DNA from: Escherichia phage BYEP01
Direction: 5' to 3' (one strand)
DNA length: 64,000 nucleotides
Sequence record: OR757453.1
Shown here one piece after another: positions 2,033-46,539 of the stretch; within the stretch, counting starts at the first letter, position 1; every line of letters starts with the position of its first letter. A program made the translations under genes and the position numbers. The notes under the pieces were generated by a model, which saw only the letters and a list, made by a program, of their open reading frames with translations, searched no databases and was not told where the DNA came from.

Positions 2033-2479
2033 ATGATTACAGTAGATAAGTGGTTTAGAATTAATCGTGCTGATAAAGGGCTGTGTAATTACTGGCCGGA
2101 ACTTAGTGCAGGTACTGTCTTTAAAGTTCGTGAACTTGCAAAAGAATGCGAAGATGATATAGAACCTGATACTGGAATTATTGAAATTGAACTTTCTGAC
2201 GGAAAGGTTATTAACATCTATGATAAGCCAATTACGTATTGGTGCTTGTGGAATACTGAATCAGTAGAAAATGGCGAAATTGAAGAAGTTGTAGAACGAG
2301 CTGATCAAGCTCTTCATAAACCTAAAGCCGCTTTTCAAGGTGAACGCATTTCATACGCATTAGCTAAATTAGCTGCACAAGAAAATAACGATGGTTATGA
2401 AGGAAATTTGATGCAAGCTGCGGCAGAATATATTGAATGGCTTGAAACTCAAATTTCTTTTTCTGACCGAGCGTTTTAA
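2033..2479 (+). CDS. hypothetical acidic protein, 148 aa (occupies pin/49.x position)
   Basis: ATG at 2033 in frame of track ORF 2015..2479 (track start is TTG). Confidence 0.5.
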   Translation: MITVDKWFRINRADKGLCNYWPELSAGTVFKVRELAKECEDDIEPDTGIIEIELSDGKVINIYDKPITYWCLWNTESVENGEIEEVVERADQALHKPKAAFQGERISYALAKLAAQENNDGYEGNLMQAAAEYIEWLETQISFSDRAF

Positions 2480-2490
2480 TACTTGAAAAT

Positions 2491-2530
2491 AATAAATACC
2501 CTTATCTATTTAAGGTAAGGGTTTATTATG
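2491..2530 (+). promoter_or_regulatory. stem-loop overlapping ribosome-binding region of gene 49
   Basis: accctta (2498-2504) pairs with taagggt (2516-2522); ATG of gene 49 at 2528. Confidence 0.4.
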
Positions 2531-3001
2531 TTATTGACTGGCAAATTATATAAAGAAGAAAAACAGAAATTTTATGATGCACAAAATGGTAAATGCTTAA
2601 TTTGCCAACGAGAACTAAATCCTGATGTTCAAGCTAATCACCTTGACCATGACCATGAATTAAATGGACCAAAAGCAGGAAAGGTACGTGGATTGCTCTG
2701 TAATCTCTGTAATGCAGCAGAAGGTCAAATGAAGCATAAATTCAATCGTTCTGGCTTAAAGGGACAAGGTGTTGATTATCTTGAATGGTTAGAAAATTTA
2801 CTTACTTATTTAAAATCCGATTACACCCAAAATAATATTCACCCTAACTTTGTTGGAGATAAATCAAAGGAATTTTCTCGTTTAGGAAAAGAGGAAATGA
2901 TGGCTGAGATGCTTCAAAGAGGATTTGAATATAATGAATCTGACACTAAAACACAATTAATAGCTTCATTTAAGAAGCAGCTTAGAAAGAGTTTAAAATG
3001 A
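2528..3001 (+). CDS. 49: endonuclease VII (Holliday junction resolvase), 157 aa
   Basis: Protein MLLTGKLYKEEKQKFYDAQNGKCLICQ... recognised as T4 gp49; zinc-binding Cys cluster; length 157 aa. Confidence 0.9.
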   Translation: MLLTGKLYKEEKQKFYDAQNGKCLICQRELNPDVQANHLDHDHELNGPKAGKVRGLLCNLCNAAEGQMKHKFNRSGLKGQGVDYLEWLENLLTYLKSDYTQNNIHPNFVGDKSKEFSRLGKEEMMAEMLQRGFEYNESDTKTQLIASFKKQLRKSLK

Positions 3002-3535
3002 CGATTGAAAAAGAAATTGAAGGATTAATTCATAAAACTAATAAAGACCTTTTAAACGAGAATGCTAATAAAGATTCTCGTGTTTTTCCAACTCAACGGG
3101 ACCTTATGGCTGGTATTGTGTCTAAACATATTGCCAAAAATATGGTCCCGTCTTTTATTATGAAAGCGCATGAAAGCGGAATTATTCACGTGCACGATAT
3201 TGATTATTCCCCTGCTCTTCCATTTACTAATTGCTGTTTAGTAGATTTAAAAGGAATGCTTGAGAATGGATTTAAGCTCGGTAATGCACAGATTGAAACT
3301 CCTAAATCAATCGGTGTTGCTACTGCAATTATGGCACAAATTACTGCGCAGGTTGCTTCTCATCAATATGGCGGAACGACTTTTGCGAATGTAGATAAAG
3401 TACTTTCTCCTTATGTTAAACGCACCTATGCAAAACATATTGAGGACGCAGAAAAATGGCAAATCGCTGACGCGTTGAATTATGCCCAATCTAAAACAGA
3501 AAAAGACGTATACGATGCATTCCAAGCTTATGAGT
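2998..3535 (+). CDS. nrdD: anaerobic ribonucleotide reductase NrdD, exon 1
   Basis: ORF aligns to N-terminal third of class III RNR; ORF ends in stop 3541-3543 inside intron; 5' splice site after U3535 inferred from P1 pairing. Confidence 0.85.
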
Positions 3536-3868
3536 TAATTTAATTCAGGCTCATGTAAAACCGGTCTAAACGGGGAACCTCTCTAGTAGACAATCCCGTG
3601 CTAAATGTTCTTTTGAACTAAATGCCTAACGACTAACCGTGATGAATGTAGCGGTGTAGAATAGAAGCTAATGCTATTCGAAACGGCCGGCATCGAAAGA
3701 TGAAGATATAGTCTAATCTGCATGGCGACATGCAGCAGTCATCTTGTATAAATAAGATTATCTTATGAATACGAGGTGAAACAATGAAATGGATAAAAGA
3801 CGTTGCATATCTATGGACTATCCAAATTTTGTTGTTTCATATAAACGGGCATGAATTTGCGTCTCATG
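3536..3868 (+). ncRNA. group I self-splicing intron in nrdD, no homing endonuclease ORF (about 333 nt)
   Basis: P1: exon atgagt (3530-3535) pairs with intron gctcat (3549-3554) with U.G at splice site; P10: ttcag (3544-3548) pairs with exon-2 start ctgaa (3869-3873); conserved P (cggggaa), Q (aatcccgtgc), R (acgactaa) and S (aagatatagtc) elements; P9 hairpin ctgcatggcgacatgcag; omega-G at 3868. Confidence 0.75.
3747..3754 (+). promoter_or_regulatory. late-promoter consensus TATAAATA inside the nrdD intron
   Basis: Exact TATAAATA; followed by SD gaggtg and in-frame ATG at 3784. Confidence 0.4.
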
Positions 3869-5160
3869 CTGAATATAATGATGAAGTAAATACACTTTTC
3901 AGCTCTAATGGACAAACGCCTTTTGTAACAATTACGTTTGGTACGGGAACCGACTGGACTGAACGAATGATTCAGAAAGCAATTCTTAAAAACCGCATTA
4001 AAGGCCTTGGTCGTGATGGGATAACTCCTATTTTCCCTAAGCTTGTTATGTTCGTTGAAGAGGGTGTTAATCTTTATAAAGACGATCCGAACTATGATAT
4101 TAAGCAGCTTGCTTTAGAGTGCGCAAGCAAAAGGATGTATCCTGATATTATTTCAGCTAAGAACAATAAAGCTATCACGGGTTCATCTATTCCTGTTTCT
4201 CCAATGGGTTGTCGTAGTTTCTTGGGCGTATGGAAAGATTCCACTGGTAATGAAATTCTTGATGGACGTAATAATCTTGGCGTTGTAACACTGAATCTTC
4301 CTCGTATTGCGTTAGATTCTTATATTGGAACACAGTTCAATGAACAGAAATTTGCCGAATTGTTCAATGAACGAATGGATTTATGTTTTGAAGCTTTGAT
4401 GTGTAGAATTAGTTCCTTAAAAGGAGTTAAAGCGACTGTTGCTCCTATTCTTTATCAAGAAGGTGCATTCGGGGTTCGTCTTAAACCTGATGACGATATA
4501 ATTGAGTTATTTAAAAACGGTAGAAGTTCAGTGTCCCTAGGATACATTGGTATTCACGAATTGAATATTCTTGTCGGTCGTGATATTGGACAAGAAATTT
4601 TAACTAAAATGAATGCTCGTCTTAAGCAGTGGACTGAAAGAACCGGTTTTGCTTTTAGTTTGTATTCTACTCCTGCTGAAAACCTGTGCTATCGCTTCTG
4701 TAAACTTGATACCGAAAAATATGGAAGTGTAAAAGATGTTACCGATAAAGGCTGGTACACTAACAGTTTCCACGTTTCAGTAGAAGAAAATATTACTCCG
4801 TTTGAAAAGATTTCTCGCGAAGCCCCGTATCATTTCATTGCGACAGGTGGTCACATTTCTTATGTTGAACTTCCTGATATGAAAAATAACTTAAAAGGCC
4901 TTGAGGCCATATGGGATTATGCTGCACAACATTTAGATTATTTTGGTGTTAACATGCCGGTAGATAAATGTTTTACATGCGGAAGTACCCATGAAATGAC
5001 TCCTACTGAAAACGGATTTGTTTGTTCTATTTGTGGAGAAACTGATCCTAAAAAGATGAACACAATAAGAAGAACATGCGGATATCTTGGAACTCCTAGC
5101 GTTGTTCCATGGAATTTAGGTAAAATGAAAGAAATGGTAAAACGAGTAAAACATGCATAG
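3869..5160 (+). CDS. nrdD: anaerobic ribonucleotide reductase NrdD, exon 2 (glycyl-radical domain)
   Basis: Contains C-terminal Cys cluster CFTCG...CSICG and glycyl radical motif RRTCGYLG; frame continuous with exon 1 after splicing (…AYE-S-EYNDEV…); total about 609 aa. Confidence 0.85.
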
Positions 5161-5983
5161 GTATTATATAATTTATAAAATAACAAATATAATTAATTCA
5201 AAGGAATATATCGGTGCGCATAGCACCGATAACATAAATGACGGTTATATGGGGTCAGGAACATTGATTCGTGCCGCTTTATTAAAATATGGTAGAAAAA
5301 ATTTTAATAAAGAAATTTTACATGTTTTTGATAATGAAAAACAAATGTATGATAAAGAAGCTGAACTTGTAACCGAAGAGTATTGTCTAAAAGAAAATAC
5401 ATATAATATTAAACCTGGTGGAAAAGGTGGAACTGCCTATGAACAGACACTTGAACATCGCCGCAAAAATAGTTTAGCAAATAAAGGTAAAAAGAGAACA
5501 GAAGAAACTAAAATAGCTATTTCACGTGCTTTAAAGAAATATAAACGTACGCCAGCGCATCAAGCAAATTTAAATAAAGCCGTAAGCATAGCTATGAAGC
5601 GAAAAGATGTTAGAAGTAAATTAGCTGGAGAGCGGTCTGAGAAAGATAAATTATCTATATCAAACGGTGTTAAAAAATATTACAATTCTTTGAGTGAAGA
5701 AGAACGCGAACTTCATCGCAAGCGAATTATTGAAGGTAAAAAGAATTCTCCCATGTCATTGGAATCTAGACAAAAGCTTTCAAAAGCTTTAAAAGGACTT
5801 CAAGTTGGTTCAAAAAATCCAATGTATGGAAAAATTTCTCCAACTAGCAAAACCGTTTCAGTTGACGGTATTAAATATGATTCAATTAAAAAGTGCTCAA
5901 ATGCCATAAAAGTTTCTAGACATCTTATACTAAAACGCTGTAATTCTACTGATGAAGCTTGGAAAAATTGGATATTATTATGA
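5153..5983 (+). CDS. freestanding GIY-YIG homing endonuclease (276 aa)
   Basis: N-terminal YYIIYKITN...YIGAHS (GIY-YIG) motif, basic NUMOD-like middle, C-terminal HTH-like tail; start overlaps nrdD stop, stop overlaps nrdG start. Confidence 0.8.
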   Translation: MHRYYIIYKITNIINSKEYIGAHSTDNINDGYMGSGTLIRAALLKYGRKNFNKEILHVFDNEKQMYDKEAELVTEEYCLKENTYNIKPGGKGGTAYEQTLEHRRKNSLANKGKKRTEETKIAISRALKKYKRTPAHQANLNKAVSIAMKRKDVRSKLAGERSEKDKLSISNGVKKYYNSLSEEERELHRKRIIEGKKNSPMSLESRQKLSKALKGLQVGSKNPMYGKISPTSKTVSVDGIKYDSIKKCSNAIKVSRHLILKRCNSTDEAWKNWILL

Positions 5984-6450
5984 ATTATGACAGAATATAC
6001 CCGTGCTGCTTTGTTAATGGTCCTGGATGCAGGACAGTTCTTTTCGTTACAGGTTGTTTGCATAAATGCGAAGGGTGTTATAATAAATCAACATGGAATG
6101 CTAGAAATGGCGTTCCATTTACTGGTGAAACACTAGAACAATTAATTGAATGTTTGAATAATGATTATATAGAAGGATTAACTATAACTGGAGGTGACCC
6201 TCTTTATCCTGATAACCGAGATGATGTTCATTGCATTGTTCAAACTGTAAAAAATCTTTATCCAAATAAAAGCATTTGGTTGTGGACAGGGTACAAGTTT
6301 GAAGATATTAAACAACTAGAAATGCTTAAATATGTTGATGTTATTATTGATGGGAAGTATGAGAAAAATCTTCCAACCAAAAAGCTGTGGCGAGGTTCAG
6401 ATAATCAGCGACTTTGGTCAAATACCGATGGGGTGTGGAAACATGATTAA
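5980..6450 (+). CDS. nrdG: anaerobic RNR activating enzyme NrdG (radical SAM), 156 aa
   Basis: CxxxCxxC-type cluster (CLHKCEGCYN); length matches T4 NrdG; ATG at 5980 (ATGA overlap). Confidence 0.85.
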   Translation: MNYDRIYPCCFVNGPGCRTVLFVTGCLHKCEGCYNKSTWNARNGVPFTGETLEQLIECLNNDYIEGLTITGGDPLYPDNRDDVHCIVQTVKNLYPNKSIWLWTGYKFEDIKQLEMLKYVDVIIDGKYEKNLPTKKLWRGSDNQRLWSNTDGVWKHD

Positions 6451-6564
6451 ACTGAATTATATTATTGATACTATAAATGATATGATTTTTCATTTTGGTC
6501 CAGAATTTTATTCGCAGTATAGTTTAGTACTTATCAATGCTTGGTTAATCAATTAAGGGTAAAT

Positions 6565-6780
6565 ATGTATAAATTTCGTAAAGGTTTAGCTGATTTTCTT
6601 ACAACTGTAACGTTCTTTTTGTTTATGGCAGTTGGTGCTATTTTTCTTATTCCTTTTATTGCTATATTTTTCGTAATTAGCTTAATTTCTCCAGAAAAAG
6701 GCTTATCTTCTAGCGAGTTCAATGAGCGTCTGGATAAAATTACTAACAAGCTTAATGCTGTTCTTGATAAAAAGGCTTAA
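6565..6780 (+). CDS. hypothetical membrane protein, 71 aa
   Basis: ATG at 6565 with upstream AGGG; strongly hydrophobic segment. Confidence 0.55.
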   Translation: MYKFRKGLADFLTTVTFFLFMAVGAIFLIPFIAIFFVISLISPEKGLSSSEFNERLDKITNKLNAVLDKKA

Positions 6781-13188: not shown

Positions 13189-13635
13189 CTTTTGATGAAT
13201 TTAAAAATGTTATGATGAGTCAGCATTTTGAATGTGAAGTAAAAGATGATATTGGGCATAAAGAAATTATTGAATATTGGTTTGAACCGTTAGAGGTTGA
13301 AGATAATTGTATTAAAAAGGTCACGGTCTGCACTGACTGGGCTGTATCTTTTAACTTCAACATTTTAGATAATGACACACCTAAATCATTACAAGATATG
13401 GCTGTATCTTGTATTAAGGATGCATACTGTGAAGTTTTCGACATTTGACATTAACGATGAATTCATAGCAAATATTGATTACACCGAAGAAGATTCTAGA
13501 TATGTTGGAATAATTTATATCACATCAAAAGCAGCACAAGGTGTTGTTTGCATGGCTGAATTTGATGAATACTTTTTAGATTATGATGATATGATAGAAT
13601 GGTCTAAAAGATACATTAAAAGGAATCTTTTGTGA
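13185..13635 (+). pseudogene. ORF split by a 7-bp tandem duplication (fragments 13185..13448 and 13420..13635)
   Basis: Direct repeat gacatt-t-gacatt at 13440-13452; deleting 7 nt fuses the two frames into one 147-codon ORF. Confidence 0.45.
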
Positions 13636-14486
13636 AGAATTTTAAACTTGATATTAATGATGAATTTTTAATAAAGGAATTAGTTGAAAAATTAGTGTTG
13701 AGCGAAGAAGACGCCAAGTCTTACATTAATTTTATTTCTATGAATTCAACTGTTAAAACTCCAGGTAAAACGGAAGCACATCACGTGCTTCCTAAATCAA
13801 TATTTCCTGAATATTTAAAATCTACATGGAATTTAGTTAATTTAAGTCATTTCAATCATTTCAAAGCACATTTCTTATTAGCAAAAGGTAAAAATGGAAA
13901 AATGCTAAATGCTTTAAATAGAATGATGTCAGGAAAAACATATAAAAATTTATCTTTAGCCGAAGTTGATTTAATAGCTGCTGAATATAGTTTTATAAAA
14001 CAAGATGTAAGTGACACAATATCAAAAAGGCTTCAACAGTATTATTCAAATCCGCAAAATAGAAATGCTGCTAGAGAAAGGGCATTAAAATATTTTTCAG
14101 TAGCAAAAAATAGAAAAGATAACAAAGAAAGATTAAATAATTTTAAAACAAAACAAAAAATTTCAATGGCTTCAAGGGAATGGTTTAATAACGAAGAAAA
14201 TAAAATTAAACACCAAAGGGCTGTTCGCGCTGCTTTATCAAAACCTGAATATAAAATAGCTATATCAAATTCAGTAGCTGCTAGTTGGAAAAATCCGGAG
14301 ATTAGAAAAGCTCATATAGCATCTCGACGAAAAGGCTATCATTGGGATAATAAAGATAAATTGTATGAATTGTGGATATCATATAATCGTCCTAAACATG
14401 TGATGTTTAGGAAAATGTTAGTTAAGAATGGATATCCAATAGAGGCTTCATTACAGGCTTTAGTTAAAGAATTTTCTTCATTGTGA
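13632..14486 (+). CDS. freestanding HNH homing endonuclease, 284 aa
   Basis: HNH-type motif EAHHVLPKS...NLVNLSHFNHFKAH, NUMOD-like basic repeats; inserted between genes 47 and 46; GTG start. Confidence 0.7.
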   Translation: MKNFKLDINDEFLIKELVEKLVLSEEDAKSYINFISMNSTVKTPGKTEAHHVLPKSIFPEYLKSTWNLVNLSHFNHFKAHFLLAKGKNGKMLNALNRMMSGKTYKNLSLAEVDLIAAEYSFIKQDVSDTISKRLQQYYSNPQNRNAARERALKYFSVAKNRKDNKERLNNFKTKQKISMASREWFNNEENKIKHQRAVRAALSKPEYKIAISNSVAASWKNPEIRKAHIASRRKGYHWDNKDKLYELWISYNRPKHVMFRKMLVKNGYPIEASLQALVKEFSSL

Positions 14487-32847: not shown

Positions 32848-32907
32848 CTGCTTATATATTCAAATGATATAATTATTTAACTTATTAATGAATTGAAAGG
32901 AAAAATA

Positions 32908-33423
32908 ATGGCATACTTTAATGAATGTTCACAACTGATCGAAGGCGCTGATAAAGCTCAAAATGAATACTGGGATATTCTCGGTGATGAAAAAGACCCA
33001 CTACAGGTTATGCTTGATATGCAGAAATCTTTGCAGGTTCGTTTAGCAAATGACCGCGAATACTGCTATCATCCAGATAAATTAGAAACTGCCGGTGATG
33101 TTGTTTCTTGGATGCGTGAACAAAAAGACTGTATTGATGATGAATTCCGCGAACTTCTGACTTCTCTTGGTGAAATGTCACGTGGTGAAAAAGATGCATC
33201 GGCAGTTTGGAAAAAATGGAAAGCACGTTATATTGAAGCGCAAGAAAAACGCATTGATGAAATGTCCCCAGAAGATCAGCTCGAAATTAAATTTGAGCTT
33301 GTGGATATATTTCATTTCGTATTAAATATGTTTGCTGGCCTTGGAATGAATGCGGAAGAAATTTTTAAACTTTATTATTTGAAAAATAAACATAATTTTG
33401 AACGTCAAGATAATGGGTATTAA
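32908..33423 (+). CDS. 56: dCTP pyrophosphatase gp56, 171 aa
   Basis: MazG-like sequence; ATG 32908 with SD aagga; length 171 aa. Confidence 0.85.
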   Translation: MAYFNECSQLIEGADKAQNEYWDILGDEKDPLQVMLDMQKSLQVRLANDREYCYHPDKLETAGDVVSWMREQKDCIDDEFRELLTSLGEMSRGEKDASAVWKKWKARYIEAQEKRIDEMSPEDQLEIKFELVDIFHFVLNMFAGLGMNAEEIFKLYYLKNKHNFERQDNGY

Positions 33424-34087
33424 ACAAAAATTTTATAGAACATATATAGTAAAAGTTAGGACGCCGAAAGGCGTCTTTTGGTACGCTGGGAAACATGAAT
33501 CATTTATTGTAAATCCATATGATGATAAATATCCGGGTTCAGGCAAAATACTATGGAACATATATCGTAAGTATGGTTTTAATTATAAAATACGTTGGTC
33601 AAAATGCCATGGTTCTAGAGAAAAATCATATGAAGTTGAACGCGAGCTAATATCTGCATTAAAACGTAAACACCCAGATACTTGCATTAATATTTCTCCT
33701 GGTGGTCAGGGTGGAGAAGGAAGAAAATGGACTGAGCAACAACGATTAGAACATAAACTTAGATTAAACAACCCTGAAACAAAAACTCGGATGAAGAATT
33801 CACAACGTATAGCCCAAAATAGAGCAGAACGAAAAGCTCGGCAATCTGAAGTAATGAAAAAGTTTTATTCAAATGGCGGAAATAAAAAGATTTCAGAAGG
33901 AACTTCAAGGGCGCAAAGAAAAGCACCGCATTGGCATGAACCACTTAAAAGCGAAATACACGAGTTATGGGTTTCTTTAGGTAAACCAGCAACAGGCCCG
34001 GTTGTAAAGGCGCTTAAAGGAAAATATGATGTAACAAGTTCAGCTCTTAAGAATTTAATTTACTTATTCAGAAAAGAAGATGTATAA
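33413..34087 (+). CDS. segF: GIY-YIG homing endonuclease SegF-like, 224 aa
   Basis: YIVKVRTPKGVFWYAGKH GIY-YIG variant; position between 56 and soc; length 224 aa. Confidence 0.75.
   Translation: MGIKQKFYRTYIVKVRTPKGVFWYAGKHESFIVNPYDDKYPGSGKILWNIYRKYGFNYKIRWSKCHGSREKSYEVERELISALKRKHPDTCINISPGGQGGEGRKWTEQQRLEHKLRLNNPETKTRMKNSQRIAQNRAERKARQSEVMKKFYSNGGNKKISEGTSRAQRKAPHWHEPLKSEIHELWVSLGKPATGPVVKALKGKYDVTSSALKNLIYLFRKEDV
33459..33480 (+). terminator. terminator-like hairpin inside the 5' end of segF coding region
   Basis: gacgcc-gaaa-ggcgtc plus TTTT, 36 nt after gene 56 stop. Confidence 0.45.
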
Positions 34088-43878: not shown

Positions 43879-43924
43879 ATGATTACCGGAGTATAATATT
43901 CCCGAAACCAAACGAGGATAAGTG

Positions 43925-45742
43925 ATGATTAAGAATGAAATTAAAATTCTGAGCGATATTGAACATATCAAAAAGCGTAGCGGCATGTACATTGGCTCTT
44001 CAGCTAATGAAATGCATGAGCGCTTTCTGTTTGGTAAATGGGAAAGTGTTCAGTATGTACCTGGTCTTGTTAAGCTTATTGATGAAATTATCGATAACTC
44101 AGTAGATGAAGGTATTCGTACTAAGTTTAAATTCGCAAATAAAATTAATGTTACCATTAAAAATAATCAGGTAACAGTTGAAGATAACGGTCGTGGTATT
44201 CCACAAGCGATGGTTAAAACACCTACCGGTGAAGAAATTCCTGGTCCTGTTGCTGCCTGGACTATTCCAAAAGCAGGTGGTAACTTTGGTGATGATAAAG
44301 AACGCGTCACCGGCGGTATGAATGGTGTTGGTTCTAGTTTAACTAACATTTTTTCTGTGATGTTTGTCGGTGAAACTGGCGACGGTCAAAATAATATTGT
44401 AGTTCGTTGTTCAAATGGCATGGAAAATAAATCATGGGAAACTATTCCTGGAAAATGGAAAGGAACTCGCGTTACTTTCATTCCTGATTTTATGTCATTT
44501 GAAACTAATGAGCTATCTCAGGTTTATCTTGACATTACACTGGATCGTCTCCAGACACTTGCAGTAGTTTATCCTGATATTCAATTTACCTTTAATGGTA
44601 AAAAGGTTCAGGGTAATTTTAAGAAATATGCACGTCAATATGATGAACATGCTATCGTTCAAGAACAAGAAAACTGTTCTATTGCGGTTGGTCGTTCGCC
44701 GGATGGTTTTCGTCAATTAACATACGTCAATAACATTCATACTAAGAATGGTGGCCATCACATTGACTGTGTTATGGATGATATTTGTGAAGACCTTATT
44801 CCACAAATCAAACGTAAATTTAAAATTGACGTAACTAAAGCACGTGTTAAAGAATGTTTGACTATCGTTATGTTTGTTCGTGATATGAAAAACATGCGAT
44901 TTGATTCTCAAACTAAAGAACGACTTACTTCTCCTTTTGGTGAAATTCGTAGTCATATTCAGCTTGATGCTAAAAAGATTTCACGTGCTATTTTAAATAA
45001 TGAAGCAATTTTAATGCCAATTATTGAAGCTGCCTTGGCTCGTAAATTGGCGGCAGAAAAAGCAGCAGAAACTAAAGCAGCTAAAAAGGCTTCTAAAGCT
45101 AAGGTTCATAAACATATTAAAGCGAATCTTTGCGGTAAAGATGCTGATACTACTCTTTTCTTGACTGAGGGTGATTCTGCTATCGGATATCTTATTGATG
45201 TTCGTGATAAAGAACTTCATGGTGGTTATCCATTGCGCGGTAAAGTTCTTAATAGCTGGGGTATGTCATATGCTGATATGCTTAAAAACAAAGAACTGTT
45301 TGATATTTGCGCAATCACTGGATTAGTTCTTGGCGAAAAGGCAGAGAATACGAACTATCGTAATATTGCAATTATGACTGACGCAGATCACGACGGTCTT
45401 GGAAGTATCTATCCGGCTTTGCTTGCTTTCTTTAGTAATTGGCCTGAATTGTTTGAACAAGGACGTATTCGCTTTGTTAAAACGCCTGTAATTATTGCAC
45501 AAATTGGCAAAACTCAAAAATGGTTTTATACTGTAGCTGAGTATGAAGAAGCTAAAGATGCTCTACCTAAGCATAGTATTCGATACATCAAGGGATTGGG
45601 CTCACTTCAGCGGGATGAATATAAAGAAATGATTCAAAACCCTGTGTACGACGTAGTTAAACTTCCTGAAAATTGGAAAGAACTATTTGAAATGCTCATG
45701 GGTAACGACCCTGAACTCCGTAAAGATTGGATGCTAGGATAA
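43925..45742 (+). CDS. 39: DNA topoisomerase II large subunit gp39, unsplit form (605 aa, covers T4 gp39 plus gp60)
   Basis: GyrB-like ATPase and TOPRIM regions in one ORF; ATG 43925 with SD gagga. Confidence 0.85.
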   Translation: MIKNEIKILSDIEHIKKRSGMYIGSSANEMHERFLFGKWESVQYVPGLVKLIDEIIDNSVDEGIRTKFKFANKINVTIKNNQVTVEDNGRGIPQAMVKTPTGEEIPGPVAAWTIPKAGGNFGDDKERVTGGMNGVGSSLTNIFSVMFVGETGDGQNNIVVRCSNGMENKSWETIPGKWKGTRVTFIPDFMSFETNELSQVYLDITLDRLQTLAVVYPDIQFTFNGKKVQGNFKKYARQYDEHAIVQEQENCSIAVGRSPDGFRQLTYVNNIHTKNGGHHIDCVMDDICEDLIPQIKRKFKIDVTKARVKECLTIVMFVRDMKNMRFDSQTKERLTSPFGEIRSHIQLDAKKISRAILNNEAILMPIIEAALARKLAAEKAAETKAAKKASKAKVHKHIKANLCGKDADTTLFLTEGDSAIGYLIDVRDKELHGGYPLRGKVLNSWGMSYADMLKNKELFDICAITGLVLGEKAENTNYRNIAIMTDADHDGLGSIYPALLAFFSNWPELFEQGRIRFVKTPVIIAQIGKTQKWFYTVAEYEEAKDALPKHSIRYIKGLGSLQRDEYKEMIQNPVYDVVKLPENWKELFEMLMGNDPELRKDWMLG

Positions 45743-46539
45743 TGAATTATCGTAAAATTTATGATAAACTTATCGCTGCGGCTAAAAACCGCAGCACTAT
45801 TCCTAATTATACTGAAACTCACCATATTTTGCCTAAATCTATGGGCGGGAGTAATGCTAAATCAAATCTAGTTAAAATGACCCCTAGAGAGCATTTTATC
45901 GCCCATTTATTGCTTTATAAAATTCATAAGAACCGTTCTATGCTTATGGCTATTAGAGCTTTTTACATGGGAGCTAGAAATTCTAGAGATTATGATTGGC
46001 TTAAACAAGAATTCTCTAAAGAGCACTCTAGATTTATGAAAGAATGGATTGCTAAAAATGGCAACCCATTTAAAGGTAAAAAACATACTAAAGCAACAAG
46101 AGAATTAATGTCACATATTGCTTCACAACGTATAGGCGAATTAAATCCATTTTATGGTAAAACTCATACGCAAGAAGCAATAGATAAAATAATACAGGCT
46201 AACAAGTTATCTTGGGAGAATGGGCGAAAAGCACCTGTAAAAACAAAAGAACACCAGGATAAAATAACTAAATCAAGAATGGAAACATTTAAAACAAAAG
46301 GATTTAAACCATACACTCCTAGGTCAGAAGAAACTAAAGCTAAGACTAGAGAGTTGTATAAATCTAAATATGAAAGAAGGCCTATAAGAATCACAAGTGT
46401 AAAAACAGGTGAAACTATTGATTTTAACTATCTTTATGAATTAAGGGAGTATTTAGATATAGGGTCTTCTAATATATTGAAAGCATTAAATAATCCTAAC
46501 AGAACCTGCAAAGGTTATAAAATGTGTTGGATGTCCTAA
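45742..46539 (+). CDS. freestanding HNH homing endonuclease, 265 aa
   Basis: ETHHILPKSMGGSNAKSNLVKMTPREHFIAH HNH motif; NUMOD repeats; TAATG overlap with gene 39 stop. Confidence 0.75.
   Translation: MNYRKIYDKLIAAAKNRSTIPNYTETHHILPKSMGGSNAKSNLVKMTPREHFIAHLLLYKIHKNRSMLMAIRAFYMGARNSRDYDWLKQEFSKEHSRFMKEWIAKNGNPFKGKKHTKATRELMSHIASQRIGELNPFYGKTHTQEAIDKIIQANKLSWENGRKAPVKTKEHQDKITKSRMETFKTKGFKPYTPRSEETKAKTRELYKSKYERRPIRITSVKTGETIDFNYLYELREYLDIGSSNILKALNNPNRTCKGYKMCWMS

Follow-up and report, generated by a model that had tools for sequence, protein, structure and literature searches.

Escherichia phage BYEP01 (record OR757453.1) carries an intact ortholog of segH, the gene of a free-standing GIY-YIG homing endonuclease, at the junction of nrdD and nrdG. 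The best explanation of the whole locus, to which we assign a probability of about 0.9, is that this gene spreads by homing as proposed below and that the group I intron in the adjoining nrdD has separately lost its own endonuclease gene, I-TevII. The locus lies in a 64,000-nt stretch of phage DNA (in its entirety called the window), in the order gene 49 (endonuclease VII, 2528–3001), nrdD exon 1, intron, nrdD exon 2, segH and nrdG. The window is part of a T4-like (Tequatrovirus) genome; its positions 2400–6600 have matches in over 1,000 phage records, with Escherichia phage N2 the closest (98.6%).

The segH ORF (5153–5983, + strand) encodes 276 residues and is far beyond what chance would produce. 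Because an in-frame TAA is found at 5147–5149, the ATG at 5153 is the earliest start possible. This start overlaps the end of nrdD (TAG, 5158–5160) by 8 nt, and the segH TGA (5981–5983) overlaps the ATG of nrdG (5980–5982) by 4 nt, in the sequence ATGA. The preliminary description was thus right that the gene overlaps both neighbors, but not in placing its ATG 8 nt before the nrdD stop, since the 8 nt are counted to the last base of that stop. Both overlaps are found in the T6 annotation (nrdD 1131–2948, segH 2941–3771, nrdG 3768–4238) and likewise in the RB3 record. The gene sits inside the nrdD-nrdG operon, as first described. The downstream gene, nrdG (5980–6450, + strand), encodes the activase of the anaerobic reductase and was identified by Pfam Fer4_12 (4.1e-48) and Radical_SAM matches and by the nrdG annotation of T6 and RB3.

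The product is identical to RB3 SegH (ABI48949; AY262138.2, annotated “homing endonuclease”) at 275 of 276 residues, the sole difference being E135A in the linker, and this near-identity to the RB3 type protein settles the identity of the gene. Consistent with this, the segH DNA is 99.8–99.9% identical to genes annotated as segH or ‘SegH homing endonuclease’ in RB3 (99.8%), PP01 and others; its identity to T6 segH is 98.9%. The product also matched PHROG_314 ‘homing endonuclease’ (1.4e-59); together with the RB3 match, this upholds the initial reading of 5153–5983 as a free-standing GIY-YIG-type endonuclease gene. The exact BYEP01 SegH protein has no identical sequence on record. Altogether, 72 phage records carry segH, T6 and PP01 among them; judged by its sequence, the gene is already known, named and characterised, which the preliminary description had missed, and it recurs in dozens of T4-like phages with sequenced genomes. 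It was reportedly named by Sandegren, Nord and Sjöberg in 2005 (Nucleic Acids Res), who are said to have described SegH of RB3, LZ2 and T6. The genes of these phages (AY262138.2, AY262139.2) are the same gene at the same nrdD/nrdG position with the same 8-nt and 4-nt overlaps; however, RB3, LZ2 and T6 have an nrdD without intron, whereas BYEP01 has an ORF-less nrdD intron and the E135A substitution. The sole new detail is this combination of segH with an nrdD intron freshly stripped of its ORF.

How is SegH built? The predicted layout is a GIY-YIG domain, then a NUMOD3 linker, then an I-TevI-like C-terminal DNA-binding domain, and profile searches supported its parts to different degrees. The NUMOD3 DNA-binding motif (residues 200–228; 5750–5836, + strand) scored above its cut-off (PF07460, 3.8e-8, 33.6 bits against 20.4). 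The putative GIY-YIG catalytic domain (residues 5–90 approximately; 5165–5422, + strand) was placed by PF19835, by its likeness to SegA-E and by alignment with I-TevI: PF19835 (SegE_GIY-YIG) gave 31 bits when residues 1–100 were searched alone (cut-off 25) and 18.6 bits with the whole protein, and the generic GIY-YIG profile PF01541 stayed below its cut-off (16.5 bits against 22.6). TIGR01453, ‘group I intron endonuclease’, matched SegH over its whole length (2.4e-13), with 50.6 bits below a cut-off of 56.05. The putative helix-turn-helix DNA-binding domain at the C-terminus (residues 226–273; 5828–5971, + strand) was placed by PF20987 (3.6e-4, below its own cut-off), BLASTP and hhalign.

Comparison with T4 I-TevI, for which structures of both domains have been solved (1MK0/1LN0 and 1I3J), gave two collinear BLASTP matches covering the catalytic and DNA-binding domains: SegH residues 7–101 align to I-TevI 5–106, with IY...YIG and YNI conserved, and residues 224–276 to I-TevI 194–243 (E 4e-4). 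In hhalign, a shallow SegH profile matched I-TevI in the C-terminal domain alone (E 3e-4). In GIY-YIG enzymes, motif A consists of GIY, 10–11 residues and YIG (PMC2988022); SegH has it as IIY (6–8), 10 residues and YIG (19–21), aligned to GIY (4–6) and YVG (17–19) of I-TevI. For motif B, BLAST placed a gap in SegH opposite I-TevI R27, and R40 of SegH, in GTLIRAALLKYG, is only a candidate. For motif D, E69 and E71 are invariant in SegH, I-TevII and SegF and lie at most one residue from I-TevI E75; for motif E, Y84-N85-I86 of SegH aligns to Y89-N90-I91. Searches of PDB sequences with SegH alone and with a three-sequence profile gave no meaningful match, and a single-sequence AlphaFold model of SegH was all-helical and unusable (pLDDT 46). 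Over the codons of the YIG motif, segH contains a perfect 9-bp inverted repeat with a 5-nt loop (TATCGGTGC GCATA GCACCGATA, 5209–5231), which a terminator scan flagged on the minus strand and which is probably incidental.

Upstream of segH, nrdD is split. Exon 1 (2998–3535, + strand; Pfam NRDD, 1.5e-40) and exon 2 (3881–5160, + strand; NRDD, 2.1e-122, and Gly_radical, 1.2e-24) flank a 345-nt group I intron (3536–3880, + strand), with boundaries set by alignment to the intron-less T6 nrdD and by the intact spliced ORF. Predicted splicing of 2998–3535 to 3881–5160 yields an intact NrdD of 605 residues with 7 differences from T6. The Rfam model RF00028 matched 3500–3735 over its full length (positions 1–253) with 72 bits (gathering score 50), and the intron, of the nrdD/sunY type, has its catalytic core complete and lies at the insertion site used in T4. 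It has no intact endonuclease ORF, in agreement with the preliminary description, which had noted that the intron lacks an endonuclease of its own; I-TevII is deleted.

Relatives with a T4-type intron have approximately 698–700 additional bp at this position, coding for I-TevII. When aligned to N2, window positions 2400–3805 and 3793–6600 correspond to 501–1908 and 2594–5402, with a 13-nt overlap, and the deletion junction lies in imperfect 14-bp direct repeats, ATAAAAAGACGTTG and ATAAAAGAACGTTG. I-TevII was accordingly removed by a deletion of about 698 bp between short direct repeats. Remnants still surround the scar: the T4 late-promoter consensus TATAAATA (3747–3754, + strand; an exact match with a presumed promoter function), the I-TevII start with the deletion junction (3784–3805, + strand, by N2 alignment; ATG 3784, MKWIKD, junction ATAAAAGACGTTG at 3793–3805), and the 3′ end of the gene. 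Thus, I-TevII was lost in place. Middle and late promoters are known upstream of intron ORFs (PMC2988022). This ORF-less intron allele, with its exact junction, was absent from other phage records, IMG/VR contigs and JGI metagenome contigs. Phage 215Ecol030PP has a different, internal deletion of I-TevII and carries mobC instead of segH. The loss in BYEP01 is best read from these alignments as recent, independent decay of the other selfish element in this crowded locus.

The I-TevII ATG left behind by the deletion (3784) shares its reading frame with nrdD exon 2 (3784–5160, + strand), and it is preceded by the TATAAATA motif at 3747–3754 and by GAGG just ahead of it. A late transcript that stays unspliced or begins inside the intron could therefore direct synthesis of a 458-residue, N-terminally truncated NrdD with 32 foreign residues.

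Could segH be the intron nuclease itself, moved outside the intron? The preliminary description had raised this relocation, and SegH and I-TevII do share the GIY-YIG type, PHROG_314 and a C-terminal ‘VDGIKY’ DNA-binding region; the I-TevII remnant is 1.3 kb upstream of segH. However, the two proteins are only about 29% identical, with many gaps (E 1e-5 to 4e-9), I-TevII being intron-encoded and, in BYEP01, deleted, and SegA-E are far closer to SegH: in blastp, T4 SegD, SegC, SegB, SegE and SegA are its closest T4 paralogs (E 2e-34 to 4e-24). In addition, remnants of I-TevII are still inside the intron, segH and an intact I-TevII coexist in the close relative N2 and in 15 other records, and segH occupies the same site in the intron-less T6, RB3 and PP01. 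Relocation of I-TevII is thus unsupported, and we rejected it as having next to no chance of being correct. With T4 SegA-SegE, SegH shares a common type of N-terminal domain (Y.Y.ITN...YIG.HS...DGYMGSG; 42–54% identity) and a free-standing, promoter-poor cassette lifestyle (PMC2988022), but those genes are at other loci and their C-terminal DNA-binding regions differ from that of SegH, so that they presumably have other targets.

Evidence for mobility of segH comes from the sequences that border it. In most Tequatroviruses, such as T2 and RB51, the site is empty and nrdD and nrdG overlap directly by ATGA. In the window, segH is accompanied on its left by a recoded nrdD 3′ end (5076–5160, + strand) that differs from T2 and RB51, whose site is empty, at approximately 35 of 85 nt and is nearly identical to RB3, as is the sequence from 5050 onward, the end of NrdD staying similar (VKRVKHA* against MHRVKHQ*). 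On its right is a variant nrdG 5′ end (5991–6036, + strand; nt 12–57 of nrdG), heavily substituted against empty-site phages (14 mismatches in 46 nt against T2), again with proteins that stay alike. The start of segH, ATGCATAGG, is the 9-mer with which T2 and T4 encode Met-His-Arg close to the C-terminus of NrdD, and a 16-nt insert ahead of it, GGTAAAACGAGTAAAA, rebuilds the end of NrdD as VKRVKHA*. Against RB3, only 2 mismatches occur over 5050–6011, whereas flanking nrdD exon 2 and nrdG have 5–15 mismatches per 200 bp; for nrdD exon 2 the difference is 4–7%. The segment that travels with segH therefore extends roughly 100 bp to the left and 30 bp to the right of the gene.

The right arm is identical to the nrdG 5′ end behind HNH genes of Paracelsus and 215Ecol030PP. 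T4 itself has mobC where BYEP01 has segH, and mobC is listed at nrdG/nrdD in Table 1 of PMC2988022. MobC and the HNH genes of Paracelsus and 215Ecol030PP thus share with segH both the junction and the variant nrdG 5′ end, but their nuclease family (PHROG_655, HNH) is unrelated to that of SegH, and mobC of T4 and the Paracelsus gene open with the first nrdG codons (MNYDR...), whereas segH opens on ATGCATAGG. At least four states of the junction are known: empty (T2, RB51), with segH, with mobC (T4) and with other HNH genes (Paracelsus). Considered together with decayed copies, these states indicate that the junction is a hotspot of repeated invasion, replacement and decay.

Two genomes have unusual versions of this junction. 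In 215Ecol030PP (4290–4400), the 3′ end of nrdD is recoded as it is next to segH and includes the 16-nt insert; after it come the ancestral nrdD tail and mobC. Such a hybrid junction would be expected if a segH genome and a mobC genome had crossed over at ATGCATAGG, which they share. In phage PD112 (1501–1830 of its compared sequence), segH is cut to an in-frame stub of 80 residues by a deletion equivalent to window positions 5292–5868, between short repeats, and its nrdG has a premature TAA at codon 12.

Is segH of BYEP01 itself a relic? The gene could be inactive and retained only because without it the stop/start overlaps connecting nrdD to nrdG would be upset; homing endonuclease genes do decay, as the internal deletion in PD112 and the decay of I-TevII in the same window attest. 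This is very unlikely, given that the ORF has its full length, with one substitution against the RB3 gene, and that segH is 99–100% conserved over 49 records in which the flanks differ by several percent. Conservation of the gene amid divergent flanks favors recent spread over decay.

How might segH be expressed and spread as an active homing gene? A promoter scan of 4800–5153 found no sigma-70-like site and no TATAAATA, and RNA folding at the segH start found no hairpin that would hide it (z-score 0.59). Several free-standing endonuclease genes are promoter-less cassettes that are transcribed from upstream promoters (PMC2988022). From the arrangement of the genes, segH would be read from the nrdD-nrdG message and translated at a low level, with its start and stop overlapping its neighbors, an arrangement that would preserve the stop/start overlap seen for nrdD and nrdG in phages without segH. 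Within the region, the best sigma-70-like site is located in nrdG (6057–6084, + strand; TTTGCA, 16 nt, TATAAT, with an upstream TG; 10 of 12 matches), from where the small genes further downstream could be transcribed.

In a mixed infection, SegH would then cleave the nrdD-nrdG region of a co-infecting phage, the T4 recombination machinery would mend the break from the segH-carrying genome, and the repair would give the recipient a copy of segH together with the short recoded flanks, that is, intronless homing with marker exclusion. For cleavage and homing we draw on what has reportedly been published on RB3 SegH and other Seg proteins. Sandegren et al. (2005) are said to have found that the SegH cut site is near its own locus, that DNA with and without segH is cleaved, and that SegH homes and is preferentially inherited in mixed infections.

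Does SegH also act on the intron? Among the 72 segH records, a T4-type intron in which I-TevII is intact occurs in 16 and a variant intron region in 4, and approximately 50 are intron-less; since so many lack the intron, segH is independent of it. One of the phages compared, Yersinia phage fPS-2 (181–4666 of its compared sequence), has three homing endonuclease genes around nrdD, namely one in the interval between gene 49 and nrdD, one in the variant intron region (annotated) and segH. The preliminary description had also suggested collaborative homing. By its strict form, SegH would cut the intron insertion site of an intron-less nrdD and the intron would shield its own genome. The neighborhood itself, an ORF-less intron adjoining a free-standing nuclease in one operon, is the arrangement described for this process, whose strict form requires cleavage by that nuclease where the intron inserts (PMC2988022). 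Yet dozens of intron-less phages with segH at the same site would then carry an uninterrupted target, the recoded, co-travelling flanks are at the nrdD/nrdG junction and not at the exon junction, and the intron had its own nuclease until its recent deletion. The cut of SegH near its own locus, reportedly described in the 2005 study, points the same way. With the sequence that travels with segH confined to about 100 bp to its left and 30 bp to its right, strict collaborative homing is extremely improbable.

Alternatively, a SegH cut near the nrdD/nrdG junction could drag the ORF-less intron into intron-less phages by long co-conversion, in a form of trans-homing. The distance would allow it: in an intron-less recipient the insertion site would be 1.28 kb from the junction (exon 2, 3881–5160), and T4 co-conversion reaches at most approximately 2 kb (Wilson and Edgell). 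The T4-type intron is also associated with segH, occurring in 16 of about 70 segH records against approximately 53 of about 708 records without segH (odds ratio 3.7, p 1.5e-4), in a crude comparison that ignores kinship and duplicate records. However, all 16 records that have both elements also have an intact I-TevII, which is enough alone for intron mobility, and the roughly 50 intron-less segH records argue against a joint transfer. The near-identity to RB3 stops approximately 100 bp upstream of segH, exon 2 beyond it differing by 4–7%, so past transfers of segH were short tracts. Moreover, the ORF-less allele was seen in BYEP01 alone among the phage records, IMG/VR contigs and JGI metagenome contigs. 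Trans-homing of the intron by SegH is therefore unlikely, and homing of segH with its short flanks remains our preferred reading.

A natural precedent for such mobilization is T4 MobE, which mobilises the nrdB intron with its defunct I-TevIII by trans-homing (Wilson and Edgell 2009). In MobE/I-TevIII, and in collaborative homing (PMC2988022, its refs 87 and 88), a free-standing nuclease is beside an intron without self-mobility, as in BYEP01; BYEP01 differs in showing no sign of mobilization of the intron by SegH and in its short co-travelling flanks.

Other endonuclease genes were observed elsewhere in the window. A second free-standing GIY-YIG gene, an ortholog of SegF (33413–34087, + strand) that is 99% identical to T4 SegF, is directly after a gene 56-like ORF (32893–33423). 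Gene 39, for the topoisomerase large subunit (region 43922–46539, + strand), is an uninterrupted ORF of 606 residues, whereas T4 splits the subunit into gp39 and gp60. Behind it and overlapping its end is an intact Mob-type HNH/NUMOD3 gene (45742–46539) with 45–53% identity to the N-termini of T4 MobB and MobE. Immediately upstream of gene 46, where T4 has 46.1 and 46.2, lies a MobD-like HNH ORF (13632–14486, + strand) with 30% identity to T4 MobD and no Pfam match.

What does the locus mean for T4-like phages? If trans-homing were true, the locus would follow MobE and the nrdB intron as the second natural case, seen shortly past the hand-over, and BYEP01 would be a possible natural donor in which a free-standing nuclease, at a distance of 1.3 kb, rescues the mobility of an intron that has no nuclease. 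By itself, the locus matters little, but with its decayed copies of segH (PD112) and of I-TevII (the BYEP01 window and 215Ecol030PP), it is an illustration of selfish nuclease genes coming and going.
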